DNA of 64,000 nt, taken from Amphiscolops sp. MND2022 (Eukaryota). Position 1 is the first letter of the stretch. Each line of letters opens with the position of its first letter. The position numbers were made by a program, and so were the translations under genes. The DNA lies in contig OZ076409.1 in assembly GCA_964187785.1 (NCBI GenBank), positions 45,014,001-45,078,000 of the forward strand, written 5' to 3'. Shown here piece after piece: positions 37,782 through 64,000 of the stretch. A model generated the notes under the pieces. The model was not told the origin of the DNA, did not search any database, and saw only the letters and a program-made list of their open reading frames with translations.

Positions 37782-38122
37782 GGGTGGCTGTAAATAGGTC
37801 GAATTTTTCTGGTCGAAAGGACTGAGGTCGAACCTTTTGATCGAATTACAGGGATCGAATGGAATGGGGACGAATTTTAAAGTATTTGTTGTATGGCTCG
37901 GTCGCTTCGGTCCCTTCGCCAAGTAGCAACATTGAGGCATGGCCATATGGCACGTCGCTCCGCTTCGCTTCGCTCCTGCATTCAGGACACTAGGGGTATG
38001 TGAACATATCTGACTACGTTTCGATACGAGTTGTTTCGATCCCATTCAAAAATTTGGTAATGTCGACCTGAGGACTAACTCTGATTTTCGATCCCGTTCC
38101 TTCGACCTATTTCCGCCCACTC
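37782..38122 (+). mobile_element. Mutator-type MITE copy 2
   Basis: Same family as 34723-35066; 9 bp TSD GTGGAAAAA/GTGTAAAAA. Confidence 0.88.
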
Positions 38123-38295
38123 GTGTAAAAATAATGACAACAGGTCATTTCTGAAATGTTACACCAGAACCAGGGTTTTCAATCTTATATACAATCTCAA
38201 TTTCAATCTCAATCTTTTTCTCTCCAATCTTAATCTCAATCTTTTTATCTGAAAAATTCAATATCAATCTCAATCTCAGTTTTTACTTCATCAAT

Positions 38296-38605
38296 TGATA
38301 TACCAGATATATATGTTGCTTGATTTTATATCATTCCCCCAACCCCCCGTATGTCTAGACTTTATAACAAATGCACTTCATCAATGTAACTGATTAATAT
38401 TCTAGACGTAAACTTGATGTACCCACTTTATATTCTGTACGATGCATTTTGATTTAGAACACAACTATAATTCATTCTTCACCAACCAGTTGTCTTCCTT
38501 TAAGACCTAATATCTGCAGCTCTATTAGTGTCTCTTAAAGTACTAAGATCAAATGAACATTCCATCTCTGTCCCACTGATCTATAGTAAGAACTCAAGTA
38601 CTTTA
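38296..38605 (+). repeat. 5' LTR of element B (310 bp)
   Basis: Differs from the 3' LTR by one substitution and one 2 bp indel, as read by eye. Confidence 0.96.
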
Positions 38606-38607
38606 AC

Positions 38608-38620
38608 TGGTGCGACCATC
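38608..38620 (+). promoter_or_regulatory. Candidate tRNA primer-binding site
   Basis: TGGTGCGACC lies 2 nt after the LTR end. The cognate tRNA is not identified. Confidence 0.65.
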
Positions 38621-38685
38621 TCGTTTCTTTCCTTTTCTACAACCAATTTTGTAATCCAAATTTTCTTCTCTTTCACAAAATCTTC

Positions 38686-38888
38686 TGTACTAATTACCCA
38701 ACGTGATTCGACCTCGTAGTCGGTACAAACGCAATTCTTCTTCTGTACTAATCACATATTGTGGTTCGACCTAGTAGTCGGTACATCAAAACTTTCTGTA
38801 CTAATCACCTTTTGTGATTCAGTTACACACTGGTACACTATCTTCTCTTGTACTAATCACCTTTTGTGATTCAGCTCCTGCTGGTACA
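38686..38888 (+). ncRNA. Four tandem structured RNA units (three-way junctions) in the 5' leader
   Basis: Units 38686-727, 38744-785, 38797-837, 38849-888: TGTAC-T-AATCAC-loop-GTGATT-stem3-GTACA, with compensatory and G-U changes. Confidence 0.8.
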
Positions 38889-39647
38889 ACCATTTCTTTT
38901 CTTATATTCATTTTTCATACTTGAACTCTCTAATATACCTTCCTTTTCGTTTTTGTCTCGCTCCTTTTTCTAACCCACATTTCTTCGCCACCACTTCCTT
39001 TCTCACAATTCTCCATATTATTTCATGCCTTCTTTGAATGACTCCGTTTGTATTTGTTTAATCCTCCTTTACATTTTTGGTCTTTGCGCAATTGTTTTGC
39101 TCCTTGTTGACAAACTCATCCTGCCTTTTATTCCCCACGCCTTTGAACAATATAGAACATCTTCACTTTAATAATTATATATGTTTCTCACTGAAAATCT
39201 TGCCACTATTATCCTTTTCGTTTCCTATATCTTTGCCATGATGGTTTTTTTGATGCTTCTCATTGAAAAAATCGTTGAATCTCTTTTCAACTAACTTCCC
39301 TTTCTTTTCCATTTTCCCTTTTTTCTTTCCCTATCACCTCCTTGATTTTTCCGCATATTTTATTAACACCTTCCCTATTCTTTCGTACCATTCTCCTTTT
39401 CCTCACTTTGTATGCACCTCCTCTTCCTTCACCCCACTCACCTCCTTGCCCTTTTCCAACTTCTTTTTCTTTCTCTTTTCCTCATAACTACATCCATATA
39501 TTTTTATCCCTCTTTCCTCTCCTTTTACACTTATCTTCGCCTCAAAATCCATCGGTACTTTCACCCTCTTCCTACTGAACCATCTATTCACCCTGACGTA
39601 ATTATGGATTGGATTTGGTTACATTTCAATCCTCATAAACATTCCTA

Positions 39648-42600
39648 ATGACTGATTCACATCTCCTTCTTCCACTTCTTTTCGCCCCAACCTCCTCTCA
39701 ACGTATTACCCGTGATATTTCACACACTCTTCTCCAATTCCTCAACAATCTTATCTATAATTCAACCACTCCTCTTTCTTTTGAAACCTACCCGGAAGAT
39801 ATTTACACTACCCCACTAATTCGTGATCATCATGATTCTTATTTATATTATATTGCCACCCATTCACTTATTCCAAATTCTGACGAACCTCCATTTTCTA
39901 TTCCGTTCACTTCTCCCACAACTCACTGTGATACTTTTCAAAAAAATATCCATCCCAATAATATTCAAATTCCAATCGCCCATGTATTTACAACTTTTCT
40001 AAACAACCTCCAAGAAAAAAATAACCTTCTACCTAAACATGTTTTTAACCCTTCCTCCATTCAAGAACTTCTTCAAAAGAAATCTCTTTTTGACCTTCCT
40101 AATATTGAACAATTTCGCTCTATTGAAAATAATCCTCACCATTGGCTTACCACAGATATACTTCAAATTCATCACTTTCAATATCAATTTTTCCAAAATA
40201 TTACCCTCAATAAAAATACCAAAGAACAAATTTAAATATACTCCCTTTTTCTTCGCAAATTTTTCCGACATAATTACCAACTAATTTGGCATTCAAAATT
40301 TCAAACTGCCTGTCAAAACTTTCCGCAACAATTCACTACTGATGAACTTCTACCTTTCCTCGATACTCCTGATAACCAACATCCCCACTATTATAACCTT
40401 CTTGATTTTCCTTCCTCTCATTTTGTATATCTTACCTATGATTCTAATAGTATTGATAAAAGCCTCAATCTTCCTCCTCCTCTTCGCCCTTATTTCCATC
40501 AACCCAATATTCCTCCTTCGAATGAGACACTTTCTACAGCTTCTATTCAAACTCTCTCTTCCTCGTCACATCCCGTGACAAATCCTACTTCATCTTTAAC
40601 TCGACATATCTCTCCCCCTACTTCTCAAGACACATCTTTAAACCACAACAATCCTCCTTCTACTTCTCAAATCACAACAATTCATAACAATCCTCCTCTC
40701 TCTCATTCACCCAAGCAATATACAACTCCTTCTAACACCCCACCTGCTGTTATTAGTAATCCCGTTCAACATTCAACTTTCCAAATTCCTTCATTAAACC
40801 CAATTCCACTTTCTTTAAATACCACTATGCCTGCTCAAATTTTTCTCAAAATCCTCCATCTTCTTCTACTCAAAACCATTCTACTCTTCAAACAACTTCT
40901 TCCACAACCCAATCTACATCCTATAACCCTTATATTTCTCTTTATCCTACCTTTCAAAATTTCCCCACTAACTCTTTTCAACCCCCTCCAAATCCCCCTA
41001 ATTCGCTCCCTCCCACTTCCACATTATCATTCAATCCTTCTTCCTCTTATCCTTCAATTCCTTTTTCAACCACTCCTTCTGTTCCTTTTGCTGCACTTTC
41101 CGACCCTATTAAACTTTTCGATGGCTTAGATCATACCTATCCTCCAGAAAAATTCTTAGCCCACCTCAGCGCACGTGTTACATTTCAACTTGGACCTCAA
41201 CCTGTCGATATTCACTCATATTTAACTTGGCATTCTCGCCGAATGTCTCTTCTGTATTGTTCCCTCACAGGAACTGCTTCCAATTGGTATGACCGTCTCC
41301 CACAAGTTTATAAAGATGATTGGTCATCCTTTCTTCAAATTTTCAAGAAACAATTCTATTCCCAAAAACACGCATATCATGCTCAAATTGAAGCCCTTTC
41401 CCTTCTTAAAAAGGATAATGAAAATGTCCGTCACTTCGCTCTTAAAGTCGAAACCCTTGTAAAACAAGGTTGGTACAATGAATATCCTTCAACGATTAAT
41501 CTTAAATGTAATGAAATTTTTACCCGTGGTCTCCCTAAAAAATTAAAAGATTTCGCTAACAAACGTCAAGTTAAACATATTTCAAGTTCTTTAGAACCAT
41601 CAATCCCATTTCATTCTCTCGTTAATATGGTTGATTCCGAAGACATTACTCTTGAAAAAATTAAAACTCAAGAACTTTCCCTTGAAATTAACAATTTGTC
41701 TAATACTTTCCAACAGAATACAACAATTCAAGATTCTCCTCCAGAACCTCCACAAGTTCAAGTAATGGATCCTAATAATAAATCAAAACCCCAATTCAAA
41801 AAATATTGTTCATTCTGCCATAAAAATAATCACTCTGTTTCAACTTGTTTCCGCCGTCTCAATATGCTTAAAGAATCAAAACCACAATCTAGATCTCCGA
41901 CTCCCACATTTTATCAACATTTTAAAAATCCTTCCAATAAACCTCATTATTCTCGCCACCGTAGTCGAAGTTATAGTAACCCTCCTCGCAAATCTTCTCG
42001 CGACACTCGTTATCAATCCCGTTCCTATTCACGTTCACATTCACGTCCCCGGTATAATACTAAAACCTACTCCCGAACATATTCGCCTTATCACAATCGT
42101 GATAGATCTCGATATGATAAACATTATAACCATACTCAATATAAACCATATTCTTCTACACGCTCATATTATAGTTCTAATTCCTCCCGTAGTCCATCTA
42201 GATATTACCCTCGTTCTCGTGAACGTTCCTCAAATTTTAACACCTCTACCTTCAACAGATATAATTCTCCTTATCGTCCTCCTTCTAAACCACGTAATGA
42301 TCGCTATCGTAGTAGGTCTCATTCAAACTCGCACAATCATCCTCAAACCCAATACAAACCCTGTATAAATCTTACACATCCATCTACACCACCTCCTCAA
42401 ACCAACTCCCAAACAGAATCTATTTTTGAAATCAATATGTATCATCCTAATATCTCCTCGCCCCAATCTTCTTCCACTTCCTCTGAACATGCTAATGCTA
42501 TTACACCTTCCACTTGGTTCGTTAATCTATATATTTTCAAACCTAGTGAAGATACCTCTATTCCTTCTAAATTAGAACTCTTATTTCTTCTTGACAGTGG

Positions 42601-45600
42601 TGCATCCATTTGTGTTTTAAATTTACCCACTTTTACCATTTTAGCTGAACACTTCTTAAAATGTTCAACACATTCTCCACATCAAAACGAATACAAAACG
42701 TTAACTGTTGCCAATAAATCCGAAGTACCCATTCTTCATAATATAATACTTACACTCCATACTTCTCTTAATGGAAATACTCGTACCCTTGTTATTCCTT
42801 TTGCAGTCGCAAATATTAAGTTCAACATTCTTGGAACTCCCTTCTTCGAAAAATATGTTAAAACTCTTAATATTGAAAACATGTTCCTCACATTTAACAC
42901 TCCACACGAATCTCGTATTAACACTCTCCCTTTTACAGCCCATAAGGAAAAAGATTATCCATATTTTTCATATATATACACTATTAATGTTAAAAACAAA
43001 ATTTATATTAAACCCAATGCATCGCAAATTATTCATTTCCCTATTCAACCGACACTCCCGCTCACATTTAAAACCTCCGACAATGAAGTTATATTTCCTT
43101 CTACACCTCATCCATTTTTTAATACACGCTTCAATTCCACCTTTAATTTTCTTCAAGTCTATCACAATGTTAAAACTGAACCTTCAACCTGTTCTGTCAT
43201 CATTCAAAATATTACACTTCACTCCGCTACCCTTACTCCTGGATATATTGGATATATTGAAGTTCCTGCCACAAACATTCAACCCTCTCACTATAAAGTA
43301 AATGATGTACATTCTTTAATACATTCCGTATTCCATTCTTATTATCCTGATCTTTCAGAACCAAAACCTCCCCGTAGACGTTCTTCTCTCCGCAATCCTC
43401 AAATTGAAATAAACAATTTGCAGCCTTCCCAAATTTTAACACGACCCCTTCCACCTTTACCATATTCACCAGATACCCAACAATTTCTTAACAAATTTAA
43501 ATTTCAATATTCAGATGTTTCTGATGAAGAATATTTACAACTGTGTTCCATTCTTGTCAAATACCGCACATGCTATGCAACACATAAAAATGATGTTGGC
43601 CAAATAGCTACCCCTTTTCGAATTAGCCTTAAACCCAATGCTAAACTTCAAACCCAACGTCCTACCAAAGTTCCTATTCATTATAGGGAAAAATTGAAAA
43701 AACTTCTCGATGAATTAGAAAAACACAATATCATTCGCCAAATTGGTTCCACCCCCTCCGATAAATCCATTTATGGTACCACGTTTTTAAATCCTCTCAT
43801 CATCATCCCCAAAGGAGACACTATTAAAGTTGTTTTAGACGCACGTCATCTTAACTCTAATACCGATCAATCTTTTGAATCTTGGCCTATTGAACCTTTA
43901 GCCCCCCAACTTGCACGCGCTAACAAAAAATTTAAATCCGCTATCGATCTTATGTATGCTTATGCTCACGCTCCATTAGATGAAGAAACTATTACTTTAA
44001 CCAGTTTCTCCTCCGGTGACAAACTTTACGCTTTTATTCCTGGATTTTATGGTCTTAAAGGCCTACCTAATTTTTTTACCAAACAGATGTATCCATTTTT
44101 CCAAAAACTTATTGACCACGGCTTTGCACTAGTCTATATTGATGACATTCTTCTTCTCGCCCATACCAAACCTCATATGTTAAATTTAATAGAACAACTT
44201 CACCAAATTTGTCAAACAAATAATCTTAAAATTGCCCCTGAAAAATCTTTCTATATTTTTCTTACTGTTAAATTTCTTGGACATGAAATTGGCAATAACA
44301 CCATTAAACCTATTTCTTCCAAAATTGATGCTATTCACCAAATAAAAACACCTACTTCTAAAACTGAATTAATGCGCTTCATCGGATCAATGAATTTTTA
44401 CTCTAAATTCATCAATAAACTTCATATTTCTTTGAAACCTTTTTACACTCTTCTCCATGATGACATTTCATTTGAATGGACTCCTGAGTTAGACAAACTC
44501 TTTAATCAAATTAAACTCTCTCTTTCCAAAGATGCAGAACTTGCTATTCCCAATACTACCCATCCATTCTACATAACAGTAGACGCCTCTTTAATAGGTT
44601 TAGGCGCAGTTTTATTTCAACCGAACTCCAAAAACAAAATGCAAATAATTTCTTATATTTCTCGTATTTTAACAACCCAAGAACAAAAACTCTCTACTTA
44701 TGATAGAGAACTTTGTGCTATTACCTTTGCCCTTTCCCAATATGAAGTTATTATTATTGGCTCCAAATTTCCTATAACTGTCTTTACAGATCATAACCCT
44801 ATTCTTTTCCTCTTCACACGCAAAGGCAACCTAACTCCTAGACAATACAAAACTCAAATGCTATTAACCAAATTTTCAAACTTACAAATCATTCATACCG
44901 CTGGTACAAACCTTACTGTAGCTGATATGCTCAGTAGAGATTTTTCAACTATTAATGCTAAAACTTGCCAACTCCACCATAAAACTCTTCCTCCTCATAT
45001 TGATTTCCTACAACTCAAACAAAATAATATTTTGAAACCTATTCATTATCTCGTAAAACATGAAGATGTACTCCCTACACAAAAAAATGATTCACACTTA
45101 ATATTAGCCGGTTATGGTGATGATCAATTTACACTCCGTATCCAAGATAAAGGCAATGTTGTTAAATATACTCCTCGTGACTCCTTTTCTTTTCAATCTG
45201 TTTCCTCATTTTTAAATAAATACAAAAAACCTGTCAAAAACAAAGTTAAAACTCTCCTCCACGAAAACCCTCTTTTAAACGAAACTGATTTATATGACAC
45301 AGACGATCCTGTTCTTAAACAAATTCCTCAACAATATTCACAAACATCTCATGAACTTCACACCCTTTTTACAGAAGTACAACATCACTATTTTAACGAC
45401 ATTAATTTGTCACAAGATATCCTAACCAACTTTATAAACTCCCCTCCTTTTATTAATCATAATCTTCACAGTAATGCTATAACACCAACTTCCCCAAAAA
45501 CCATAAATACTCAATCTTTGCTATTTTTTGACCCTTCCTTCTTTGCCCACCGTAAGGCATTTGACAATTTTTTCCTTCTTTCTGACACCTTCTTAACATT

Positions 45601-47562
45601 ACCCATCCTACTTCAAGCCCAAAAGGATGATCCTGTTCTTTCTACAGTATATACATGGTTAAAACGAACACAGAGACCTCACTCTTTGACCCCAAATATT
45701 AAAGCAATTTCTTTTTTAAATACATATTACAAACAATTCCAACATCTATATCTAGACCCAAACTCTCACCTCATCCAATATTATACCCCCAATTCTCGAA
45801 TTTTTGAAGAAATTTTTATTAAAACTCAACCCTCTATTAACCAGACACGTATATGTTTACCATTTAAACTTTTTTATGCCGCATTTACTAAAACACATTC
45901 TCATTGCCACTCCGGTGAAAAACTCTCTATTAAAACTTTTAACCAATTTTATTTTATTCCTCATCTACCTTTATGGTTCTCAATTTTCATCCATGACTGT
46001 ATTGACTGCCAGACAAACAAGCATTTTCCAATTAAACCCCAAAACATTTCTCCTCCCCTTCCCTTTTATGAAAACGCTACTCACTTTAATTACCGGATTT
46101 CTATGGACACTAAAGGTCCTATTTCCCCATCTTCTCAAAACAACTCCTATATTTTTGTTATTATTGACGCATTTAGTCATTTCGTCGTTACTAACCCAGC
46201 TCCTAACATTAATTCCAAATATGCAATTCAAACTCTTCTCCATCATTGGATCACAAAGTTTGGTCCCCCTCAGTATCTTGTCACAGATCGAGGTACTGAA
46301 TATATTAATCAAGACATGGCTCATCTTTGTTCTCTCTTTCATATTAACCATTCACCTCGAACTCCCTATTCACCATGGACCAATGGTTTGGTCGAAGTCC
46401 AAAATAGAAACCTTGGAACTCATCTCCGGATATTTTTACAAAATCCTCCTACTAACTGGTCATTTCAAACTCAAATGTACGCATATGCTCATAATACAAC
46501 ACCTCTTTCTCAGCTTAAACTTTCTCCATATCAGATCGTTTTTCATACCCATCCTCGCATACCTCTCACCTTTTCCCTTAATCTACCTCGAGATACTCAA
46601 AAAAATTGTATTGCAACTTATTGCGAATCTCTTTCTCCTCATTCACATTATAGTACTCAAGATCTTAACCCATTTTTTCATTCTCTTCTTGACAAACCCA
46701 TCTCCTCGTGGCTTTTAGCAGCTGAAACCGCAATGTTAGAAATATATTCAACTGTTCACCGCCATATAAACCATAAACTCAATTCCCAAAGTTCTACATT
46801 TGAAACAACCCATTTGAAACAACTACCTCTTAATACTTTCGTTATACATACAAACTTTAAACCAGTTAATTTTTCAAAAAGCTCAAACCTCTCCGAATTG
46901 GCCCATATAAAGTACTTAAACATCTTTCTGAAGTAACTTACGAGCTCCTTTCTCAAGATGGCTCTACATTTCAAACTCACCGAAATCATATTCTGCCATA
47001 TTACCCTAAAGAACCTATAATTTTTCCATACATTAAACATTATCATTCTACCCCTTCTCTTATTAACAACCCTGATACTGACTCTTACCAAGATACCTTT
47101 TCTCAATTCTCCTCTTTAGATTTACAACATAATTCTAATTCTTCTCAGACTCCTCCTTCCTCCAAATCCAAACACTTTAACAGCTTCCCCCCTTCCATTC
47201 CTAACTACCAAAACCTTTCACATTATTCTTCCTTACAAGATCATTTAGACCATATTCCTTCCTCTACTACCAAACCTTTACAATCTTCCTCCTCTCAAGA
47301 TAATCTTGATAATACAATAGACTCTCACGATTCAGATTTTGAAATGCTTCCAAATCCTATTTATTATTCAAACTCCTCACCTAACTCTTTCCCTCAGTTC
47401 TTTCCTCGTGTTGCTGATTCTCCTGATACTTCTTCATCTTCTCTACTTGAATCCCCCAACGAACCAATTTACCAACGAGCTCCTCATTCCCCATACAATT
47501 TACGTTCACTCCCTCCTCGACATTATAATTCATCCAAACCAAACATTAGCTTTCCTCCTTGA
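39648..47562 (+). pseudogene. gag-pol: gag-pol of element B (1897 aa intact core 41243..46936; disrupted N-terminus; frameshift at ~46878)
   Basis: Capsid SLTGTASNWY, knuckle CSFCHKNNHSVSTC, RS-rich tract, LLDSGAS, YIDD, VDAS/FTDH, H-H-C-C and D,D35E integrase. RIGPYKV tail continues in frame to 47562. Confidence 0.93.
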
Positions 47563-47808
47563 TTAATATTCATTTTTTATTTGGATTTTCTCTCTCCTAT
47601 TGTCCTCAGTCTAAACTTTTTTAAGTTCGACATGTGACAATCTAATTAACTATTTTCTTCTAGTTCCATCTCCCCATTCTATCTCAGAAACACAAACTGA
47701 ACGGTTGCTCTCATCAAGACTGTTGCTTTCATCAAGACTTGTTGTCATACAGAAACCATTAACATACAAAATTTAATCTTCAATTCTTTTCCTTTAATTC
47801 ATTCATCA

Positions 47809-49236
47809 TTGTCTCTACTTCCAAAACTAATAACTTTTCATCCCTTCCTATTTAATAATAATCTTAAAAATTTGTTTTTTCCTTTTGTTTCCATCCTGGA
47901 TCTCACTGTATTCTTGTCCGACTCCTCCTCTCGAACCTCTTCTACCGTTTCAACTGACATTATACCTTCTTCACAAACTTCTGTATCAACTCAACAACCT
48001 CCTTTAAATCCTATCCCAATTACCCCTTCTTTAGATACCACCCCTGTTAATACTCCAACCCATACTCCTCTTCAAACCTCCGTACCTCAACAAACTCAAA
48101 CTTCTCTAACTCTTCCACTCTCTGACACAGAATTTCCTTTTGACATAACCCCTAATCATTCTCCACCTTCCTCTTCCTTTCATATTCCTGATCCAAGTGA
48201 CATTAACCCTACTCTTCTTCGAAATATTAATAACCCCACTCTTCCTCGATTAAAACTTATCCCTACTTCTATAAAATCTTTTCGCCGTCGCTCCCAATTA
48301 GATAATTCTCTTTCTATCCCTCCACCTTGTTCTCACACCTCTACTAAGTCTTCTTTACCTCCTCCTAAACCTCTTAAAATCCCCGTACTTGAATCTATTG
48401 ATTCACTCCAGAAAAAATCAGATTTGAGTGAGATCGATTCAACTACTTCCTCTCTTCTTTACCCACGTCTTCCACTTTCCAATTCTGCTTCTAAATATAC
48501 AACTTCTTCCTTAGATAATCTTCTTGACACTTCCTCTGAATCTACTATTCGCCCTCCCCTTCGTCATAGATATAATCTCCGTAATAACCGTCGTCCTTCT
48601 CCTTCCCTTGCAAGCACTAACTCTTCTCTTTTACGCCACCACGCTCAATCTCTTTCTTCAGACTCCCTTTCAAACGCAGAAAACACTCCTACTTCTGGAA
48701 TTGACACTGTCTTTTCTCAACGTTCCTCTATTTCTTCTTATAATCATACTGGTCATCTTTTCTCTCGCCCAACTTCTCAAAATTCCAGTCTTCTTTCATC
48801 TGACAATCACTTACTTAACATTGATCTTACCACTGATCAATATTCTACTCCTCCTACACCTAATCGTGTCGATTATCCTCTAATTGTAAATCATACACTT
48901 GTTAATAGCCCTCGCCAAGATCCTCGTTTTCTTTATCTTGCCACTCATAAACTTAATTCAAATCTCCATATTTCCGACACACGTCGTCGTAAAGAATTTC
49001 TCCGTCTCGAAGAACCGAGTCTAGAACTTAAATTTGAAATCAACGTCAAATTCCATAACTTAAGTCCTCATCCCATTCCTTCCCATACAACAGTAAATTT
49101 TAAATCTCTTCCCCATCCATTTATTGCCACCAATCTTAGTCTTTTTGTTAGTGATCATCCACCATTTCGTCTTTTACACGGTTCAATTACTTTTCTTAAT
49201 ACCCTCACCTTTTTAAAATACACTGCCCAATTTTAA
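47809..49236 (+). CDS. Accessory ORF X (about 475 codons, S/P/T-rich; start codon uncertain)
   Basis: Long stop-free frame between pol and env that ends 2 nt before the env ATG. It has no ATG at its start and contains RYNLR. Confidence 0.55.
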   Translation: MSLLPKLITFHPFLFNNNLKNLFFPFVSILDLTVFLSDSSSRTSSTVSTDIIPSSQTSVSTQQPPLNPIPITPSLDTTPVNTPTHTPLQTSVPQQTQTSLTLPLSDTEFPFDITPNHSPPSSSFHIPDPSDINPTLLRNINNPTLPRLKLIPTSIKSFRRRSQLDNSLSIPPPCSHTSTKSSLPPPKPLKIPVLESIDSLQKKSDLSEIDSTTSSLLYPRLPLSNSASKYTTSSLDNLLDTSSESTIRPPLRHRYNLRNNRRPSPSLASTNSSLLRHHAQSLSSDSLSNAENTPTSGIDTVFSQRSSISSYNHTGHLFSRPTSQNSSLLSSDNHLLNIDLTTDQYSTPPTPNRVDYPLIVNHTLVNSPRQDPRFLYLATHKLNSNLHISDTRRRKEFLRLEEPSLELKFEINVKFHNLSPHPIPSHTTVNFKSLPHPFIATNLSLFVSDHPPFRLLHGSITFLNTLTFLKYTAQF

Positions 49237-49238
49237 AA

Positions 49239-51932
49239 ATGTTCTTCCTTTTTTTCAACTCACTCTATTATTTTCTCCCTTCCCTTCTCTTGGTACTTTC
49301 TCAAAATTCTCCATCTTCCGATCATGTAGATCCCAATGATCCCCATATTTCAGACCTTTTAGTCTCTCACTATGATTGCTCTAAACAACATAATTTAAGA
49401 CAGTTTAGTCTTACCCGAGTACAACCATGCGTTCAAGCCCCCTCTGCTTTTGAAACAACACGCGCTATTGTCAATGTTTTCGTTCGTGCTAAAGCTAGAC
49501 GCCTCCGCGCTTGGACGTGTGAAGCATACGTAAAACGAGAAAAATTTGTCTGTGCCCAATCTGATTACAAATATCGTCGTCATGACCGTACGGACTATCA
49601 TCAGAATACCATGGAACGTCCTCGTACTCTTGATCCAACCGAATGTAAACACGCTATTCGTCATTTAAACGGAACTCATAATCCTCAACTCGATGCTTTT
49701 AATTATTCCAATTCTTTTACCTTTTTCAATGATATTCGAAAACAACGCCTTTTAGAAACAAAACAACCTCCTTTTCGTATTACTAAACTCAATACTTATC
49801 ATTATGGTGCTTTTGCTTGGATCACCAATTCACAATTAGTATTAAACTCAACTCTGGAAGAAAAAGCTGTTTGCTGGGACCGCTATGAATATATTATTGA
49901 AAAAGACAGTTGGTCTCTCATTGTAAAAGAAATTGAAATCACTTATGATGACAAAGAAAATAAATTAATATATCATGGACATACTTTACCTTGCCTCCAC
50001 GACGATGGTTTTTGTAAACCAACAATATTAACACCTTTCACCATTGTTTTGTTTCCTGAAGACCTTTGTTTAATTTTCTCTATTCATTCCTTTATTGGTC
50101 GAATGTCTAAACTCAATAACCGCTATTGGCTTGAAACTGAACATTTTTTCAATAATCATTCCTCTACTGAGTCAACCAATTCTCCTTACCACGATACCAA
50201 ATCTCAAACACGTCTTTCTCGCTTTGAAATTTTTCCTGAAAACAAAATGTTTTGCAATAAACCTACCCCCTTACATCTTACGCAATATCCTGACTTGTTT
50301 GTAACGTACACCGAAGGTTTTAATATGCAAACTGGTAAACATAATCCTCTTCAACTTCCTCAAGACGAACAATACAACCAACTAACCACCCAGTTAATAT
50401 CTGGAAAATTAATTCATACTAAAGATAAACTTCTTTTCCCTGCCCTAAATTCTTCGAACAACTTCGCCACCATCGATTATGAAGCTCATATTAACACTAA
50501 ACTTGATTACTCAATAAATCATGTTTTTAAAAGCATGTCTGTTGCTGAACTTAACACTCTTCACACTATATGTGAAGTCGAACGTACTCAACTTTTAACC
50601 ATACTCGCTTTGTCTGTTAAAAATCCACAACTTGGTGGTTTCCTCTTAACTCAAAATCGTAGCAACTTTTTATATGTTGAAGGCTCTACTGCCTGGTTAT
50701 ATGACTGTCCTCATCACCTTTCACCTCTCTATATTGCTGACAAATGTTATGACAAGATTCCTGTCAATTATCTTGACACTGTCATGTATGTAGATCCTAT
50801 TACACGTCAAACTTTTGAATATGCTAACCAAATACCTTGTGAAAATAATCCTCAAAATGTTATTTCTCTTGACCCAGACACCGATCAATATTACGTTCTA
50901 ACTCCTCAACCTATTAAAAAAGATCCCCCTCTTCTTTTTGAACCAACTCAAATTCAAACCGCTATTAGCCCGAATACTTTCACCGCTCAAGACGCTGGCA
51001 TTTATTCACAAAAAGAATTAAAACATTTTTGGAATCGAGTTTTATTCACTAAACACTCTGATAATACTCTCCAGCTTCTCGGAAAAGCTATCAGTTATGA
51101 ATTCATGAATCAACAATCTGACAATTCCTTTCCTAGTAATCCTTATCGATCACTCCGAATTGGTCTTCATGACTACATGTTAAACCTGACCCCATTCTTC
51201 TCTCCTGACTGGTTTACTAATGCTTTCATCAAACTTTTTGGCTATCCATGCTATATTTTAACTCAATGTGGAATATACTTCTCTACTGCTCTTTTTCTAC
51301 AATTCGCTTTCAATGCACTTTTTAGTATTTACCGTTCATTCACTGTTCGAAATCTCCTTAAAAAACAAATTTCCGTAATAACTGCCTTAGGATTTGGTTT
51401 CTTTGGCACTATTACCAAAACCATGATGACTGCTATGATTAAATCAACTCATTCATCATCAGATTCTGATGATTCTGATTCTCCTCATTCCCCTTTAGCA
51501 AACAATAATACCACGTCTTCCAGTTTTAAACCTCGTCCTTCTAAATATCATACAAATATTAAAACAAAACTTCTTAGTTTAAAAAATAAAAATCCCATGA
51601 AAAGAAGTTCACCAAACTCTTCACCTATTAAAACCCCCTCTTCCTCGATATTTCATGCTACTTCCATTAATCCTACACACCCCCCTAACACCGAAGACTA
51701 TTCGCCTCCACCTCCAAATTATAATTCTCACCTTTCATCTCATAATAATCTTTCTTTACAACACTCCCAATTACCTTCATTATCTTCTCCCCCTATTTTC
51801 ATAATTCTCCTCTTCCTGATGACACTAATTGTGATAACTCTTCTACTGATTCCCCCATTCATACTCTCTGGCAATCTACTAAAATTTACCCTCCTACTCC
51901 ACCACCAATTAAAACTAATGACATTCCGTTAA
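49239..51932 (+). CDS. env: Envelope glycoprotein, chuvirus-G/herpes gB-like (class III fusogen); tail probably frameshifted near 51800
   Basis: Signal peptide; HYDCSK...FSLTRVQPC; CEVERTQLLTILAL...NP; CYDKIPV...YVDPITR...IPC cysteine pattern; several N-x-S/T sequons; C-terminal TM; S/P-rich tail. Confidence 0.85.
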   Translation: MFFLFFNSLYYFLPSLLLVLSQNSPSSDHVDPNDPHISDLLVSHYDCSKQHNLRQFSLTRVQPCVQAPSAFETTRAIVNVFVRAKARRLRAWTCEAYVKREKFVCAQSDYKYRRHDRTDYHQNTMERPRTLDPTECKHAIRHLNGTHNPQLDAFNYSNSFTFFNDIRKQRLLETKQPPFRITKLNTYHYGAFAWITNSQLVLNSTLEEKAVCWDRYEYIIEKDSWSLIVKEIEITYDDKENKLIYHGHTLPCLHDDGFCKPTILTPFTIVLFPEDLCLIFSIHSFIGRMSKLNNRYWLETEHFFNNHSSTESTNSPYHDTKSQTRLSRFEIFPENKMFCNKPTPLHLTQYPDLFVTYTEGFNMQTGKHNPLQLPQDEQYNQLTTQLISGKLIHTKDKLLFPALNSSNNFATIDYEAHINTKLDYSINHVFKSMSVAELNTLHTICEVERTQLLTILALSVKNPQLGGFLLTQNRSNFLYVEGSTAWLYDCPHHLSPLYIADKCYDKIPVNYLDTVMYVDPITRQTFEYANQIPCENNPQNVISLDPDTDQYYVLTPQPIKKDPPLLFEPTQIQTAISPNTFTAQDAGIYSQKELKHFWNRVLFTKHSDNTLQLLGKAISYEFMNQQSDNSFPSNPYRSLRIGLHDYMLNLTPFFSPDWFTNAFIKLFGYPCYILTQCGIYFSTALFLQFAFNALFSIYRSFTVRNLLKKQISVITALGFGFFGTITKTMMTAMIKSTHSSSDSDDSDSPHSPLANNNTTSSSFKPRPSKYHTNIKTKLLSLKNKNPMKRSSPNSSPIKTPSSSIFHATSINPTHPPNTEDYSPPPPNYNSHLSSHNNLSLQHSQLPSLSSPPIFIILLFLMTLIVITLLLIPPFILSGNLLKFTLLLHHQLKLMTFR

Positions 51933-52335
51933 CTTCTGTCAATACTAATTTTGACCCACCTGACAGTCCTGTCAAAGTTTATTCTTCTTGTCGCTTCCCT
52001 CCAGAATAATATATTTACCTTTAATTTTCTTAATTCTCACTCTGAATCTTAAATACCCTAACCCAATTATATTTCCATACTAATATTGTATCTTTTCTCC
52101 ATATAATTAAACCTACTTCCTTTTTCATTTGTCGTCATTCTTGCTTTCACTCTAGTTACTCCTACCCACTTTCTCCAAACAATTTTCTTGAACTTTTCTA
52201 TACATCTTACTTTCATCTAAATTCATACAATCTTTTCTAAATAGAAAACACACATTCGTATAACCTTATCCAAACGCACATTCGCATAATTTTCACCCTT
52301 TCAACTATTCATTTCTACCTTCTTTCCACACAAAA

Positions 52336-53817
52336 ATGGCCACTATCAATCCTGAGGAAGAACTTCTTTCCAGTATTGCATCTTTGTCACCCCCTCTTTC
52401 TCTTAAATCTGGTACTCCTGATCTTCCCCTTGCCAATGATCTCCTTCCATCTAATTTTAACAATACTCCCGAACCTACTGTACCTACTACAAATAATTCC
52501 ACCATTTCTCAATCTAATAAACCATCTTCGAATAATCTTAAATCTCGTCATTCTCCTACTCCCCCTCCAAATAATCTTCATTTTACTATTGATAATCATC
52601 CTATTCCTCCTAAAAAGAAATATAATATCCTCGAAGATCCTGTTTTTATTGATTCTGGTATTTTACCTCCAACTCTTCAACCATTAAAAACTCCTTCTCA
52701 ATCAAATACAATGACTGACGAAGTCCTCCGTACTCATCCAAATTTTAAAGCTAACCTCCCTTCATTTTTCATGACCCCTACTTCTTATAAATTTCGTTTT
52801 CCTCAAGATCGTAGTTTTGACCACTATGTTGCTTATGCTTCCAAAAATCTACCACAACTCGCCTATTGGCAAAACAATCGTGTTCGTTTCTTCCAATTCC
52901 AATTCAACCTTCTTAAACCAACCCAACATGATTTAAATACCAATCCCAATGATATAACCACAACTCCCTCTGTTAAAAAACTTCACCACCAAACCTATCA
53001 ACTTTTTCTTCAACACAAACACCCTCAAAACTTCATCTTCCAAAATCATAAATTTACTTCTCCATTTTCATACCATTCTCACTATTCTTTAAACCACCTC
53101 TTCACTATTGGAACAATTCGTAAATATGATCCTGTAAAATAATATTTTGTTCTCTCTTCCTATCATGATCCTACTCGGCCGTTATTTGTCCCTCAAGAAG
53201 CACTTAATGTCATTGATGACTTTTTACTTCCTACACACATTCCCAACGCTGTTTCAAATTTCTTCCCAAAAATGAATAAATTAGTAGAAACTCCTCTCGA
53301 TGATCATTCTCGTTCACTCTACACAGCACTAGTTCACAAACACTATTCTCTGGCACAACTCAATTTTATTATCGCAAAACTTTCCTCTTTTATTCTCAAA
53401 AAACAATACAAATATTTCTCATTAAACATCTCAGATGAAATTCTCCAAACTCTTCCTAAACATACTCCTCCTAATACTACGTCTGAACCTTCTCACACTA
53501 CAATAATCCCTCCTTCATCTAATTCATATGTTCTCCAGACTACCAATCCTAATGTGTGCATAAATTCTTTCTCTTGTCCAACAGACAAATTTGTCTCAGA
53601 AATACTTACTCTTCTCCGTCCACATGTTGAAATCGCCCCTAATACTGATCCTTTTGTTATTTTAAACCACATCTTTGACACTTTCCGTAATCTTCAATCT
53701 CTACTTCAACTACACTCAACTGATATCCAAAATTTAACGATCTCTACAATTCATGTCAACGATTTTCTTAAAAAACTTGTTCTACTTGAAACTCCTCCTC
53801 AATTCACTTCCTCTTAA
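52336..53817 (+). pseudogene. Accessory ORF Y (~493 codons, one internal TAA at 53140)
   Basis: ORFs 52336..53142 and 53272..53817 are in the same frame, separated by a single stop; AAAAATGG start context. Confidence 0.65.
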
Positions 53818-54483
53818 ACCTCTCTCTTACTGGTAAACACTTTCTTTCTTTTAATTCCTTTTCACAAAAAATTTTTTTTTCAATCGACTGGATAACAAAT
53901 TTCCATAGATAACAAATTTCCATCTTATCTTTTTCGACCTCTTATTCAATTAACATAGATATTACATCTTTCACTCCTTATTAACATATATCATCTTCCT
54001 TCTCACTTTTGACACTCTTTCCTATTGTTTCCTCTACTCCTTAATAAATTAACTTGACTTTTTCACTTGTTCTTTCAATAAATGTTGACACTATCCTCAT
54101 AATATCTTCTAACATTATTAACTTTTGACAATCTTTTTCCAATTTTCTCTTTCATTTGCTTTTCCAACTCTCTTCAGATCACTCCTCTTTTGAATATCAA
54201 ATTCTAAATCTTCTACTGAATACCCACATTTCCGTTTTTGTCACGCTTATACTATCAGGTATAATATGTTTCAAATAACTTTCCAACTTTTCAAACACAA
54301 ATTCAACAAGTATTTTACACCTCTTTCTTTTTTCGTATTTTCAATTCTATCATATATTCCTCCTTTAGAATCAATAAATTCACCACAACACTTTCTCTAT
54401 ATTAAAACTTTCTCTATATTAAATTACTCTACATACTATAAAAATAATCATAATCCAACATTATCATTTATTCTGTTTCAGTA

Positions 54484-55389
54484 ATGACATCTTATCCTCC
54501 TTCGACATTGGCATATCCTCTTCTCACTCAACTTCTGGACTCTTCGCTGCCTTTCCCTGTTTCTTCCACTTCTTCAACATTCACTCTTCCAACTGTTGCC
54601 GCTACCTCTTCATCATCCCCCATTGTTTCATCATCTGCATCATCCACTGTGGCATCTGTGATATCATCCAATGTTGCATCTATAACATCTGCTGTTTCAC
54701 TATCACCCATTCCTTCTTTTGTCAATACTACAGCTTCAAATACATCTGCCTCAACTACACTTCCAGTGCTTTCTTCTTCTATTTCGTCTCCAGTTTCATC
54801 GATCGAGTCTTCTTTCTTCCTCCATCCCAAAGATGCTGTTGCCACTTCTCCACACTTCCAACAATATTCAGCCGTCCGCCAATTGACCCGTGATCTTCAA
54901 CAGAAAAAACCCAAGCATCCCAGACGTCCACACTTGCCTTCCGATATAATTCATCAACCTGTTCGTCGACTGGTCCACACAGTGGTCTATAAACAAAAGT
55001 TGAACCAGTATATAGATGCACTCAAATTGTATGAAAAACACATTGATGAACTTATTGAACAAACTACTTTTGAATTAGATAAAATTAATAATAAACCCCC
55101 CCTTTCAAAATTGCGAAAATTTAAAACGCCTCAGTCCATGCAATTATCCCCTCTATCTATTCAAATCCCTTCTAATAATTGCTATAACCATTATAATTGT
55201 TTCTCCTCTAATACTCTCCATTGTTCACATGTTCCTATCAACTATGCTATTCATTCACATTTTCCTCCCCCTCCACCTTCCCCGGCCTTAATCCCCATTC
55301 GCATTGAAGCCATAACCCCCACTTTTCAACCTCCCTCCCCTCTAAACGATTTAGACCAGTTGGTAACTTCGTTGAACGACGTTGATTAA
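54484..55389 (+). CDS. Accessory ORF Z (301 aa; S/T-rich N-terminus, central coiled-coil-like helix, Pro-rich C-terminus)
   Basis: Intact ATG..TAA, directly preceded by a splice-acceptor-like TTCTGTTTCAG. Confidence 0.62.
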   Translation: MTSYPPSTLAYPLLTQLLDSSLPFPVSSTSSTFTLPTVAATSSSSPIVSSSASSTVASVISSNVASITSAVSLSPIPSFVNTTASNTSASTTLPVLSSSISSPVSSIESSFFLHPKDAVATSPHFQQYSAVRQLTRDLQQKKPKHPRRPHLPSDIIHQPVRRLVHTVVYKQKLNQYIDALKLYEKHIDELIEQTTFELDKINNKPPLSKLRKFKTPQSMQLSPLSIQIPSNNCYNHYNCFSSNTLHCSHVPINYAIHSHFPPPPPSPALIPIRIEAITPTFQPPSPLNDLDQLVTSLNDVD

Positions 55390-56700
55390 AGAATCATTGA
55401 TTAAATATTTTTTGAAATTTTATCATCCATATTTTGACCATATTCACTTTGTCTGTTTTCAAACACATCTTTTAACCCCCCCATGTTTTTCTTGACCCTT
55501 ATAACCTCTACTATTGTACTATACCTTCCATTTTATCTAAAATTTTCAAAATTTCCTCACTAAAATTTCCCATTTTTTTCCCAAAATCTGCTTGTAACTT
55601 CGGTTCTAACAAATCAATTTTTTCAAATTCTATCTTAGCATGATGCTTTTGACCTACTTACTCTTAAATGCTGGAGCTATCCATTTTCTTCCCTTTTCTT
55701 CACCATTAATAAACTTTTTGAACCATAACTCCAAATTTTTTCTCTTCCTCCCAAAACATTTTTTGACTTTACTCCTCTTTAACTTCAATTCAACAAAATA
55801 TCTCCTTTTTAATTTTACTCCTACTCATCATATGTTCAAACCTACTTACCTCGGTATCTAACTCTTCTTCACTTGCTTTTTAACGAACTAAATTTGCGTG
55901 ATCAAAACATTTCTTCCATTTTCTCAATTGAAAAAATACCTGCTACGTGATATAAATTTGAACAAATATTGACTCATATGGCTTTGTTTTCGCTCAAAAT
56001 TTGCTTTCTTACGCCGCCTCTTTGCTTTGAAATTCTGACGTCTCATTTTAGTTGATTAAAAAGGCCCATAAGACAAACGCTTAGTTAAAAAACAACTGAG
56101 AATCTTCGGCTTCTTGCATGAATTTCCTAGTCAATTAGGCTGTCAAATTTTGCCATCTCTCACTTTTCATGTTCTCCTCCTTGTCAATCAAACTTTTACC
56201 GCCTCGGAAGATACTAACTCATTCGTCCTGTACAAAATTTTCATGAAATCTGAAACAATTTTGCTGAATTCGTAACCAACATGAACATGTCGAATTTCAA
56301 ATATTGAACTGAAAATAAACAAAAATAAAATTTTTCTTCTTCCTCTTCTCCCTTTCCTATTCTCTCATGTATTCCTGACCTATTAACTAAAGTTAATACA
56401 TCACTCCCTTGAAGATACTTTTATCTACACTAAACATCAAAAAATGCCCGTAACTCACGAAAGGAAAGATATGAAGACAACCCTATCATTAAAAATTTTT
56501 TTATTATTTTTCACAAAATATATGAAGACAACTTTTCAAATGAAAACCCCTATTGCAAGATTATTAAAATTCCTCCTTTTTCTTTCTCTAAACATATTGA
56601 ACTAAACTCCAACCTTTTTAATGGAACCCCAATTTCCAAGATACCTTTTAACAATAACCCTAAAAAAATTTCTTTTCTCTTTTTTCAAAACCCGGTCGGA

Positions 56701-57008
56701 TGATATACCAGATATATATGTTGCTTGATTTTATATCATTCCCCCAACCCCCCGTATGTCTAGACTTTATAACAAATGCACTTCATCAATGTAACTGATT
56801 AATATTCTAGACGTAAACTTGATGTACCCACTTTATATTCTGTACGATGCATTTCGATTTAGAACACAACTATAATTCATTCTTCACCAACCAGTTGTCT
56901 TCCTTTAAGACCTAATATCTGCAGCTCTATTAGTGTCTTAAAGTACTAAGATCAAATGAACATTCCATCTCTGTCCCACTGATCTATAGTAAGAACTCAA
57001 GTACTTTA
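56701..57008 (+). repeat. 3' LTR of element B (308 bp)
   Basis: Copy of 38296-38605, followed by TSD CAAT. Confidence 0.96.
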
Positions 57009-57661
57009 CAATCTTTCAATATTTTTCGAGTTATTTTAACAAAATGCCAAAAGACAATCTTTTTATTTGAAAATTGTAACAGTGAATCTGTTTTAGACTT
57101 CTATGATTACTCTAAAATGAAAACGAAGCCTGGCCCTGGTTGAAGTTGGTATGCATATAAACAATTGATTTTTGTTGCCTTTGTTTGTCAGCTTCGATAA
57201 CGCGTATAGATGCCATCAGAAAACTGAACTTGCCCCACCAAGCTTTCAATTTTTTTTCAATCTTATAAAGTATTGTCAATCTCAATCTCAAACTTGTTTT
57301 CGAGGACCTTGTCAATCTCAAGTTCAATCTCAATCTTTGTTTTTCAATCTCAATCTTGAAAATTTGCTGAGATTGAAAACACTGACCAGAACCCCACCAA
57401 CTTGTAACGCTATATCGTCCCTTTTCAACCTTCAAAGGTATGAAGCCATCAAAATTTGTGAAATGCGGTATCGGCAATTCTTTCTCTTTAGCCGATTACG
57501 CTTGGAAAAATTGGCAGACGGAATCTCCGATGTGTCATTGTGGCAAAAGTGAAGAGACTACAGAACATTTCTTTCTGGCATGTGGACTATACCAAGACAT
57601 CAGACCTGAAGACATTGACTCACTGAATCTCCTTGACCCTGATGATTGCAATACCTTTGTC

Positions 57662-58011
57662 GGGTGGCTGTAAATAGGTCGAATTTTTCTGGTCGAAAGG
57701 ACAGAGGTCGAACCTTTTGATCGAATTGCAGGGATCGAAAGGAATGCGGTCGAATTTTATCGTATTTGTTGTATGGCTCGGTCGCTTCGCTCCCTTTGCC
57801 AAGTAGCAACATTGAGGCATGACCATATGGCACGTCGCTCCGCTTCGCTTCGCTCCTGCATTCAGGGCACTAGGGGTATGTAAACATATCTGACTACGTT
57901 ATAAAAAATTCGATCCGAGTTGTTTCGATCCCATTCAAAAAATTTGGTATGTCGACCTGAGGACTAACTCTGATTTTCGATCCCGTTCCTTCGACCTACT
58001 TCCGCCCACCC
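57662..58011 (+). mobile_element. Mutator-type MITE copy 3
   Basis: Same family; 9 bp TSD ACCTTTGTC/ACCATTGTC. Confidence 0.88.
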
Positions 58012-62110: not shown

Positions 62111-62134
62111 TAGTGGTGGTGTGTATGCCTTGAG

Positions 62135-64000
62135 TTTTCAGCGTAGTCGGGTCCTAAATTAAAGTAGAAAAACATTTTGGTTGGTGGGGCTCGAACTCGC
62201 GCCGGTGGGGTCGGAGTCAGATGGCTTACCACTGGGCCACGGTGAGCTGAAATAGCTTGATTTATACTTTCATATAAAGCGTTCTGAGCTCGTAGCGGCG
62301 TTTACATCAGTTTGCTGAGTATGTATTAATGGGTAGGAGGTATTTCTGCACCAATTTAAAAATGAAATTGCGTTTCAAAGATACATATACAGAAGATCGA
62401 TTGCATATACCCAGTATATGCTCATGTATATCCAATCTCACCCGCTTTTGACTAGTGTTAGGGTTCTATCTCTTGGAAGGGATCACGTATAGCTTACATA
62501 TGCCAAAGTATTACCAGACTTAGACACTTTTGAATGTTGTTAGCCTTCGATAAATTGGGAGATAGAGTGTATATACCCAGTGTATGCTCCTGTATGTCCA
62601 ATCTCAGACACTTTTGACTAGTGTTAGCGTTCTTTAGCTTGGAAGAGATTACGTATAGCTTACATATGCCAATGTATAACCAGTCATAGACACCTTTGAA
62701 TGTTGTTAGCATACTATAAAGCGGAAGAGAGACTGTATATACCCGCTATATGCTCATGTATATCCAATCTCACCCGTTTTTGACCAATGTTAGGGTTCTA
62801 TCTCTTGGAAGAGATCACGTATAGCTTACATATGCCAAAGTATTACCAGACTTAGACACTTTTGAATGTTGTTAGCCTTCGATAAATTGGGAGATAAAGT
62901 GTATATACCCAGTGTATGCTCCTGTGTGTCCAATCTCAGACACTTTTGACTAGTGTTAGCGTTCTTTAGCTTGGAAGAGATTACGTATAGCTTACATATG
63001 CCAATGTATAACCAGTCAAAGACACCTTTGAATGTTGTTAGCATACTATATAGCGGAAGAGAGACTGTATATAACCAGTGTATGCTCCTGTATGTCCAAT
63101 CTCAGACACTTTTGACTAGTGTTAGCGTTCTATAGCTTGGAAGAGATTACGTATAGCTTACATATGCCAATGTATAACAAGTCATAGAAACTTTTGACTG
63201 TTGTTAGCATACTATATACCAAAAAATAAACTGTATACACCTAGTACATGCTGATGTATAACTAATCTCAGACACTTTTGGCTAGTGTTAGCGTTCTATA
63301 ACTTGAAAGAGATTACCTATAGCTTACATGTGCCAAAGTATACCAATCTTAGACACGTAGTTTTCAACGTAGTCGGGTCCTAAATTAAAGTAGAAAAACA
63401 TTTCGGTTGGTGAGGCTCGAACTCGCGCCGGTGGGGTCGGAGTCAGATGGCTTACCACTGGGCCACGGTGAGCTGAAATAGCTTGATTTATACTTTCATA
63501 TAAAGCGTTCTGAGCTCGTAGCGGCGTTTACATCAGTTTGCTGAGTATGTATTAATGGGTAGGAGGTATTTCTGCACCAATTTAAAAATGAAACTGCGTT
63601 TCAAAGATACATATACAGAAGATCGATTGCATATACCCAGTATATGCTCATGTATATCCAATCTCACCCGCTTTTGACTAGTGTTAGGGTTCTATCTCTT
63701 GGTAGGGATTACCTATAGCTTACATATGCCAATTCATAACCAGTCCTCGACACTTTTGAATGTTGTCAGCATACTATATACCGGAAGATAGACTGTATAT
63801 ATCCGGTATTAGCTTATGTATATCCAATATCAGACATTTTTGGCTAGTGTTAGCGTTCTATATCTTGAAAAATATTACGTATGGCTTACATAGACCAATG
63901 TATAACCTGTCTTAGACACTTTTGAATGTTTTTAGCCTTCGATAAATTGGAAGATCGACTGTTTATACCCATTGTAAGCTCATTTATATCCAATCTCACC
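62135..64000 (-). repeat. 1226 bp-period tandem unit: tRNA-like head plus 84/82 bp satellite (166/332 bp higher-order repeat)
   Basis: Head at 62179-62247 recurs at 63405-63473 (minus-strand TGGCCCAGTGG and GTTCGAGCC). Satellite monomers start at 62405, 62489, 62571, 62655, 62737. Confidence 0.85.

Follow-up and report, generated by a model that had tools for sequence, protein, structure and literature searches.

The locus described here raises the question of what kind of element carries a viral-type fusion protein gene in the genome of an acoel worm, how that gene came to be there, and how it is expressed. It lies in a 64,000-nucleotide stretch of Amphiscolops sp. MND2022 (contig OZ076409.1, positions 45,014,001 to 45,078,000; this whole stretch is referred to as the window), where an 897-codon open reading frame (ORF) with an ATG start occupies 49239-51932 (+). 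An earlier note on this DNA proposed that the ORF encodes a class III fusogen related to chuvirus G and herpesvirus gB, serving as the env of a Gypsy element. We conclude, with a probability of about 0.8, that it is the env gene of a recently inserted 18.7-kb Ty3/Gypsy long terminal repeat (LTR) element, that its product is a predicted class III fusogen, and that it is likely reached by leaky scanning on a subgenomic RNA, past an accessory gene, ORF2, that probably starts at a CUG codon.

The env protein and its predicted fold

The ORF contains the motif blocks previously described, with YDCSKQHNLRQFSLTRVQPC at residues 45-64, CEVERTQLLTILALSVKNP at residues 445-463, and CYDKIPVNYLDTVMYVDPITRQTFEYANQIPC at residues 503-534, although the two longer patterns require adjusted spacing and the exact regular expressions give no match. 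Residues 1-22 are hydrophobic (Kyte-Doolittle 1.87, a hydropathy value rather than the output of a dedicated signal-peptide predictor), moderately hydrophobic segments are present at 673-691 and 711-729, and seven N-glycosylation sequons lie before residue 670; a signal peptide and a membrane anchor (~673-729) are thus predicted. The window env lacks a furin site (R-x-K/R-R). Relative to uninterrupted copies it switches frame near 51791-51800, leaving its final ~45 residues out of frame, so the strong hydrophobic stretch at 843-888 is peculiar to this copy; of the transmembrane segment and tail noted earlier, the anchor and a PPPPNY motif (residues 823-828, within the true tail) stand, whereas the last ~45 residues do not belong to the protein.

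The ORF is not a chance one, as it matches Pfam family PF24664 (Monjiviricetes_fusion) with an E value of 8.7e-28 (97 bits, against a cut-off of 27), and its cysteines and motif blocks are kept across 15 aligned relatives, down to 28% identity, with eight cysteines invariant. An AlphaFold model of the ectodomain from 80 diverse sequences has a predicted local distance difference test (pLDDT) score of 77.9, and contains long beta hairpins (whose tips are lower-confidence parts), a 46-residue central helix, a beta-rich crown, and a C-terminal helix. The gB/G-type fold with a long central helix in this model, the conserved cysteines, and the hydropathy-based N-terminal signal and C-terminal anchor together correspond to the class III pattern. 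Neighbors in the ESM Atlas are Monjiviricetes G, rhabdovirus G, and gB. The top ten matches in a Foldseek search of BFVD are all glycoproteins of negative-strand RNA viruses or unnamed, the best being a chu-related G (E 1.3e-26), and the highest-ranking viral models come from chu-related, tick chuvirus, and xinmovirus glycoproteins (E from 1e-26 to 1e-22, 12-15% identity). Among the 33 PDB matches listed all are herpes gB (best E 3.7e-12, 8-11% identity); VIA alignment of the model with gB gives Z 11.8 over 429 residues with a root-mean-square deviation (rmsd) of 15, domain IV alone gives Z 9.3 (rmsd 3.7), and Mokola G gives Z 7.7.

Four observations weigh against this fold assignment. A first model from 33 close sequences reached a pLDDT of only 38.7; the global fit to gB is loose (template modelling (TM) score 0.27-0.31, rmsd 13-27 Å), as is expected for a monomer of uncertain conformation; TM scores to the best viral models are 0.37-0.45; and PDB sequence searches with env and with an env profile gave no match below E 0.2. 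The best structural match is nevertheless a chu-related G or gB, and neither a class I or II protein nor a non-fusogen, and we predict from the model that env folds as a class III fusogen of the gB/chuvirus-G type, as the earlier note had proposed. Membrane fusion, particle formation, and infectivity are its predicted, putative roles.

The carrier element and its copies

The env ORF belongs to an 18,713-bp Ty3/Gypsy LTR element, here called family A, in which the genes are ordered gag-pol, ORF2, env, ORF4, ORF5. The features of the window copy are as follows.

38292-38295 (+): left target-site duplication (TSD), CAAT, with the right copy at 57009-57012
38296-38605 (+): 5' LTR, 310 nt, TG...TA ends, 99.0% identical to the 3' LTR (one mismatch, one gap)
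38608-38618 (+): 11-nt primer-binding site that pairs with the 3' end of host tRNA-Met(CAT)
39648-47559 (+): gag-pol, a single 2,635-codon ORF in uninterrupted copies
47635-49238 (+): stretch free of ATG in all frames, up to the env ATG (ATG count against shuffled sequences)
47896-49236 (+): ORF2, 446 codons without ATG, probable start at the CTG in ATC-CTG-GAT (alignment of copies and sister families)
49239-52009 (+): env, predicted class III gB/chuvirus-G-type glycoprotein, in frame from 49239 to ~51795 with the remaining tail in another frame
52336-53826 (+): ORF4, 495 aa in uninterrupted copies, kept in four families, no named relative
54484-55389 (+): ORF5, 301 aa, low complexity, no family (ORF list, Pfam, and the ratio of nonsynonymous to synonymous substitution, dN/dS)
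56685-56700 (+): pre-LTR motif AAAACCCGGTCGGA, at the place expected of a polypurine tract (sister-family comparison)
56701-57008 (+): 3' LTR, 308 nt (LTR comparison)

The element has LTRs with a TSD of the 4-6 bp class and a tRNA primer site, its pol follows the order protease, reverse transcriptase (RT), RNase H, integrase, and the last three are of Gypsy type. The complete gag-pol product comprises a long N-terminal extension, capsid, CCHC knuckle, protease, RT, RNase H, integrase with a GPY/F-SH3 domain, and a serine/proline-rich tail; the families RT_RNaseH, rve, Retrotrans_gag, and SH3_Tf2-1 are matched in Pfam (gag-pol matches PF17917, PF17919, PF03732, and PF24626), and neither Peptidase_A17 (PF05380) nor any other BEL family matches in the element. 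The best solved relative of its RT-RNase H region in the PDB is Ty3 Pol (E 8e-37), followed by caulimovirus-type and foamy Pol. In an RT tree, ten env-carrying RTs and that of a second Gypsy element in the window are separated from seven BEL RTs with a branch support of 99, and BEL RTs of the same genome score E > 1 against the element RT. A BEL/Pao carrier was rejected on the absence of PF05380 and on this separation, and the attribution to Gypsy made in the earlier note holds, the grouping of the RT with BEL/Pao that was to count against it having been looked for and not seen. Against our overall interpretation it must be said that the RT and env trees are both quick searches with in-genome references only and without named Gypsy clades; the RT tree comprises 18 RT cores, has flagged long branches, and leaves out one of eight BEL rows in which the motif was not found. 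Troyka elements were also considered and rejected, since these have a 3-bp TSD and CG...CG termini (PMC12440569), whereas the acoel element has a 4-bp TSD and TG...TA ends.

The host genome contains at least nine further env families, denoted A2, A3, A4, B, B2, C, D, D2, and E. LTR ends are TG...TA in family A and TG...CA in A2 and C; TG...CA is usual in Ty3/Gypsy elements and is not a defining feature. The 3' end of tRNA-Val(TAC) has the same bases as tRNA-Met over the family A primer site, and the primer sites of families C and D match tRNA-Met across 18 nt.

Family A has about 200 copies. A genome search with env returned 144 scored matches, every one at 93-100% identity, and the exact pattern at the ORF2 start occurs at 202 sites. 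We sampled 20 copies from the better-scoring env matches, a sample that is biased to open env frames. Both LTRs lie within the fetched stretch in 17 of these, with 14 pairs identical and three at 99.0-99.7%, and 16 of 17 other two-LTR copies have 4-bp TSDs. The env frame is complete in 18 of the 20 (916-923 aa), and gag-pol (~2,635 codons) in 11. The window copy is by comparison a defective member of a still-young family, with gag, the integrase tail, the env tail, and ORF4 broken: gag-pol has a stop at 40233-40235 and frame switches near 40766-40844 and 46870-46876, and ORF4 is interrupted by a stop at 53140-53142. All five ORFs are under purifying selection in a comparison of two subfamilies (dS 0.7-1.2), with dN/dS values of 0.02 for RT, 0.04 for the env ectodomain, 0.05 for ORF4, 0.10 for ORF2, and 0.23 for ORF5.

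The element strand is C-rich and G-poor (8.5% G), and no polypurine tract was seen ahead of the 3' LTR. In its place, families A, A2-A4, B2, C, and D have a conserved AAACCCGG-like motif (with a similar CCCGG/CCGG core preceding the 3' LTR in A2, A3, A4, B2, C, and D), which suggests an unusual plus-strand primer. In the 5' leader, past the primer site, four short repeats of the CTTCTGTACTAATCAC...GGTAC type lie at 38680-38890, and are possibly packaging hairpins.

ORF2 and its probable start codon

A frame of ~450 codons without an ATG recurs between pol and env across the sampled copies. Its product has a serine-, proline-, and threonine-rich N-terminal part and a conserved C-terminal domain of ~130 aa (48844-49233 in the window; dN/dS 0.04), and an (L/I)YPxL motif is kept in four families. 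The C-terminal domain has no usable match in the ESM Atlas, no Pfam family scores above cut-off for ORF2, ORF4, or ORF5, PDB sequence searches with ORF2 and ORF4 profiles gave nothing below E 0.2, and the same profiles find no homologue in families B-E or in the metagenome loci discussed below; a search with ORF4 returned 47 relatives, all unnamed.

ORF2 very probably starts at the CUG of ATC-CTG-GAT, which has a strong context (a purine at -3 and a G at +4). This CTG is present in all 21 family A copies aligned and is the only CTG among the 58 leucine codons of ORF2 (pol has one in 254); family A2 has the same pattern, and the CTG start was predicted beforehand and then found in A3 (two of three copies) and A4 (three of three). 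Frames counted from this codon are 410-446 codons long, homology across four families begins exactly there, and a CTG in strong context is not found at any of 767 leucine codons in four pol ORFs. Genome-wide, the ORF2-start pattern has 202 CTG and no CTA, CTC, CTT, or TTA, and two diverged copies (75-77% identical) have ATG and GTG at the site, with frames of 455 and 453 codons; a third such hit (L105), which fell outside the element by chance, was discarded. The CTG is preceded by in-frame stops at distances of 7-44 codons. Read-through from pol into ORF2 is ruled out by the different frames of the two and by the 126-342 nt with stops between them.

The stretch from 47635 to 49238 contains no ATG, compared with 9.7 ± 2.6 expected, and none of 1000 dinucleotide shuffles reached zero. 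We regard leaky scanning past the CUG to the env AUG as probable, though held with less assurance than the CUG start itself. Several points count against both claims. The stretch is completely ATG-free in family A only; A2, A3, and A4 hold two to four out-of-frame ATGs, with frames of 1-34 codons (depletion P 0.003-0.08), and the two distant ATG and GTG copies hold two to three. One A3 copy has CTT at the start site, and its ORF2 is also broken. Methionine is scarce (0.4-0.8%) in the low-complexity ORFs of the element, such that its absence taken alone is weak evidence; hairpins after the CUG are inconsistent (z +0.2 to -2.4); and the 202 CTG copies are near-clones rather than independent events.

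An alternative is that ORF2 is a real gene whose translation begins in an upstream exon joined to it by splicing, or through a frameshift, with env on an mRNA of its own, and that the CTG is an RNA signal and not a start codon. Pyrimidine-rich AG candidates do lie 30-240 nt upstream of the CUG in A, A2, and A4, and a few ATGs are tolerated within ORF2 of the sister families; spliced-leader trans-splicing occurs in acoels (in one species for 30.2% of genes, PMC9911081), and in the Tor elements of Oikopleura the env RNA arises through splicing or an internal promoter (PMC4402516). However, no AG is aligned at a fixed place upstream of the CTG, the stops 7-44 codons before it and the point at which homology starts in four families both fit a start at that codon, and the naturally occurring variants at this position are ATG and GTG. 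We therefore consider a spliced or frameshifted start unlikely.

Under the favored reading, in which ORF2 starts at the CUG, gag-pol would be made as a single polyprotein from the full-length RNA, and a shorter RNA would begin upstream of 47896 by way of cis-splicing, spliced-leader trans-splicing, or an internal promoter. A minority of ribosomes would initiate ORF2 at the CUG and the remainder would scan 1.3 kb of AUG-free RNA to the env AUG, so that leaky scanning would set a low ratio of ORF2 to Env. The PPxY of the Env tail and the (L/I)YPxL of ORF2, which we read as candidate late domains of the endosomal sorting complexes required for transport (ESCRT), would recruit budding or sorting machinery, although YxxL may equally be read as an endocytosis signal. 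Env trimers would fuse membranes, so that particles could bud and then enter other cells by fusion, probably those of the germline or stem cells.

Three other observations concern this region. One copy of family C is free of ATG over a 1,168-nt stretch ahead of env, and one A2 copy (L069:800-2892) has a tandem duplication of the end of ORF2 and the start of env. A metagenome contig of the same RT clade (L094:4632-7727) has a 1,032-codon methionine-free frame directly before env, with 19 out-of-frame ATGs compared with 41.5 expected; we rejected it as support for the CUG model, as it is not homologous to ORF2 and keeps those 19 ATGs.

Origin of the env-pol pairing

Comparison of the env families suggests that the pairing of this env with a Gypsy pol is old and inherited, and not the outcome of a fresh capture. 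The A2, A3, and A4 envs are 50-54% identical to that of family A, in elements of 17.7-18.5 kb, and those of B, B2, C, D, D2, and E are 27-31% identical, in elements of 12-19 kb. All env families with an RT in view fall into one RT clade (44-74% identity), such that env is paired with the same clade in ten families of this genome. These families share with metagenome contig L084 the motif GFYGLxGLPNFF (window 43601-45001), an unusual one given that the common RT counterpart is PFGLxNAP. Nine of 11 metagenome env loci are too short or lack pol, and the other two (L084 and L094) show the same RT clade before env. The nearest env relatives (25-35% identity) thus sit downstream of the same RT clade, compared with 12-15% identity for viral G, which points to an old association. 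The RT and env trees also split the genome families alike, into an A group and a C/D/E group; this coarse agreement supports inheritance rather than a new capture. None of eight BEL stretches from the same genome contains an env-like ORF of at least 180 aa, and a scan of viral contigs gave 28 pattern matches and no relatives.

These findings bear on two statements of the earlier note, that chuvirus- and gB-like envs are mainly a BEL/Pao trait and that an independent capture by Gypsy had occurred. The former does not agree with Chary and Hayashi (eLife 2026, PMC13524379), who report env of the HSV/gB type (HSV, herpes simplex virus) in Ty3/gypsy elements over most animal phyla, as common as the F type, with 114 gypsy elements carrying homologues of the chuvirus-like glycoprotein of the mosquito BEL element Anakin, and who argue that gB-type env in Ty3/gypsy is ancient, inherited, and of Pre-Cambrian origin. 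The latter lacks support, as env travels with one RT clade both inside and outside the genome. An endogenous chuvirus insertion was rejected, env being flanked by gag-pol and LTRs with no negative-strand L or N gene.

Two rival accounts need to be weighed against inheritance of an entry glycoprotein. A fairly recent, independent capture of a Jingchuvirales G by this Gypsy lineage, parallel to that of Anakin in mosquitoes, would fit the chu-related and xinmovirus G (and not herpes gB) as the best BFVD neighbors, the Monjiviricetes_fusion assignment, and the lack of a visible BEL donor among the eight local stretches. It sits poorly with retroelement-linked relatives that are far closer than any viral G, with the same RT clade upstream of env in L084 and L094, with the parallel division of the RT and env trees, and with the ancient origin argued in PMC13524379, and we judge it very unlikely. 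Scarcely more probable is that the glycoprotein has kept its class III fold but now serves the element or the host as a cell-cell fusogen or by blocking receptors, rather than in particle entry. The missing furin site and the only moderate hydrophobic anchors could be so explained, and solo chuvirus-like glycoproteins have been proposed as blocking factors in mosquitoes (PMC7642597); however, env stays in multi-copy, recently inserted elements in every family examined, it is under selection as strong as that on the other element genes, and its tails hold late-domain-like motifs. PPxY is present in all six A-group sequences (four families), and 14 of the remaining 26 tail rows have a YPx-hydrophobic motif, against three matches in the much longer ectodomains; 22 of the 32 rows (one protein counted twice) hold one or the other.

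Families C, D, and E differ in layout from family A. A coiled-coil and MATH (TRAF-like) ORF lies between env and the 3' LTR (L056:1368-2519, PF21355, E 9e-23), and is also present in L050, L051, L054, L057, L075, L077, and L079; families C and D (L070/L056 and L071/L057) are ~19.3 kb long with LTRs of 2.1-2.2 kb and a pol-env gap of ~4 kb. A broader and distinctly tentative proposal is that a clade of giant 'complex' Gypsy retroviruses of 17-19 kb, so far undescribed, lives in acoels, and that its members combine a class III env with several conserved accessory genes (one TRAF-like in the sister families), lack a polypurine tract, and express a CUG-initiated gene together with env from one RNA through leaky scanning. 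ORF2, given its place immediately ahead of the glycoprotein, its YPxL motif, and its small folded domain, may in that case be a matrix-like budding adaptor. If so, the enveloped particles would be more like those of negative-strand RNA viruses, spreading among cells of the worm's stem-cell system.

Other features of the window and comparison with known systems

The remainder of the window holds other elements, repeats, and host genes. A second, unrelated and interrupted Gypsy element at 14120-29430 (gag 15024-16496, pol 16672-20918) is bounded by repeats at ~14120-14905 and 28643-29429, and contains several antisense ORFs at 21803-26635 and tandem repeats of 33/65 nt. A repeat of ~340 nt flanks the env element at 37782-38120 and 57662-58009 (a spacing of 19.9 kb); a further copy lies in inverted orientation at 34720-35068, and one more at 10961-11094. 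Remnants of non-LTR retrotransposons, with endonuclease and RT-like frames on both strands, occupy 32605-37383, and a satellite array of 166-nt (82+84) units extends from 62133 to 64000. Host genes lie at 1458-4036 (-), including an Angel-2-like nuclease in one long exon and a histone-fold ORF that we presume from its sequence to be NF-YC-like; the best named relative of a host gene in the window is in Convolutriloba macropyga (54%), with the next at 43% and below.

The closest described systems are the HSV/gB-type errantiviruses (PMC13524379), which share with family A the Ty3/gypsy pol, the gag-pol-env order, a gB-like class III env with signal peptide and anchor, a furin site that is not universal, many near-identical copies, and env that diverges with pol. 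Their definition, uninterrupted multi-copy gag, pol, and env, fits family A as a family; the window copy is itself interrupted. Xenacoelomorpha lie outside the taxa surveyed in that work, and five acoel or xenoturbellid names give no match in its seven supplementary files, in which Oikopleura and Schmidtea are present. Its filters (a pol-env gap of at most 1 kb and a total of at most 10 kb) would exclude a five-ORF layout of 18-19 kb such as this one, with a 1.7-kb gap holding an extra ORF, 18.7 kb in total, and three accessory ORFs, and thereby leave out of sight env elements of 17-19 kb, a class that can attain hundreds of young copies. The main text of that paper does not contain the terms 'non-AUG', 'accessory', or 'splic'. 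Since Xenacoelomorpha are a deep bilaterian branch absent from the survey that argues for a Pre-Cambrian origin, the acoel element fills a gap; acoels are also tractable in the laboratory, so that the way in which a lone gB-type protein carries a retroelement from cell to cell, a question left open there (PMC13524379), could be studied.

Other systems resemble the element in part. The BEL/Pao element Anakin (Dezordi et al. 2020, PMC7642597) is likewise an LTR element with a chuvirus-G-like env after pol, but the acoel carrier lacks Peptidase_A17 and its RT lies apart from BEL. The G proteins of Jingchuvirales and xinmoviruses and herpesvirus gB share the predicted fold and PF24664, whereas the acoel env, at 12-15% and 8-11% identity to G and gB respectively, is encoded by a retroelement and has a long proline/serine-rich tail with PPxY. 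Burro of planarians and Ogre of plants are also giant Gypsy elements with accessory ORFs (PMC6431247), and Burro combines env homology with a MATH/TRAF domain, as in the MATH ORF of families C-E; however, the Burro env is part of one huge polyprotein, in frame between gag and pol, and the Burro LTRs measure several kb, unlike family A with a separate env ORF after pol and 310-nt LTRs. Near-cognate starts in strong context, with a long AUG-poor stretch separating them from the next gene, are known from ORFs I-III of rice tungro bacilliform virus, the CUG-initiated glyco-Gag of murine leukemia virus (MLV), and aquareovirus FAST (PMC3542737). Unlike those cases, the start proposed here is that of an accessory ORF lying immediately ahead of env, in an LTR retrotransposon of an animal; the papers listed by our literature searches include no other case of this kind, and no acoel env-carrying element. 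A CUG-started ORF before env would give an LTR retrotransposon a concrete way to express more than three genes, and would escape AUG-based annotation. The combination of a Gypsy element with a gB/chuvirus-type env is thus already in print, and what is new here is the host phylum, the giant five-ORF layout, and the probable CUG-started ORF2.

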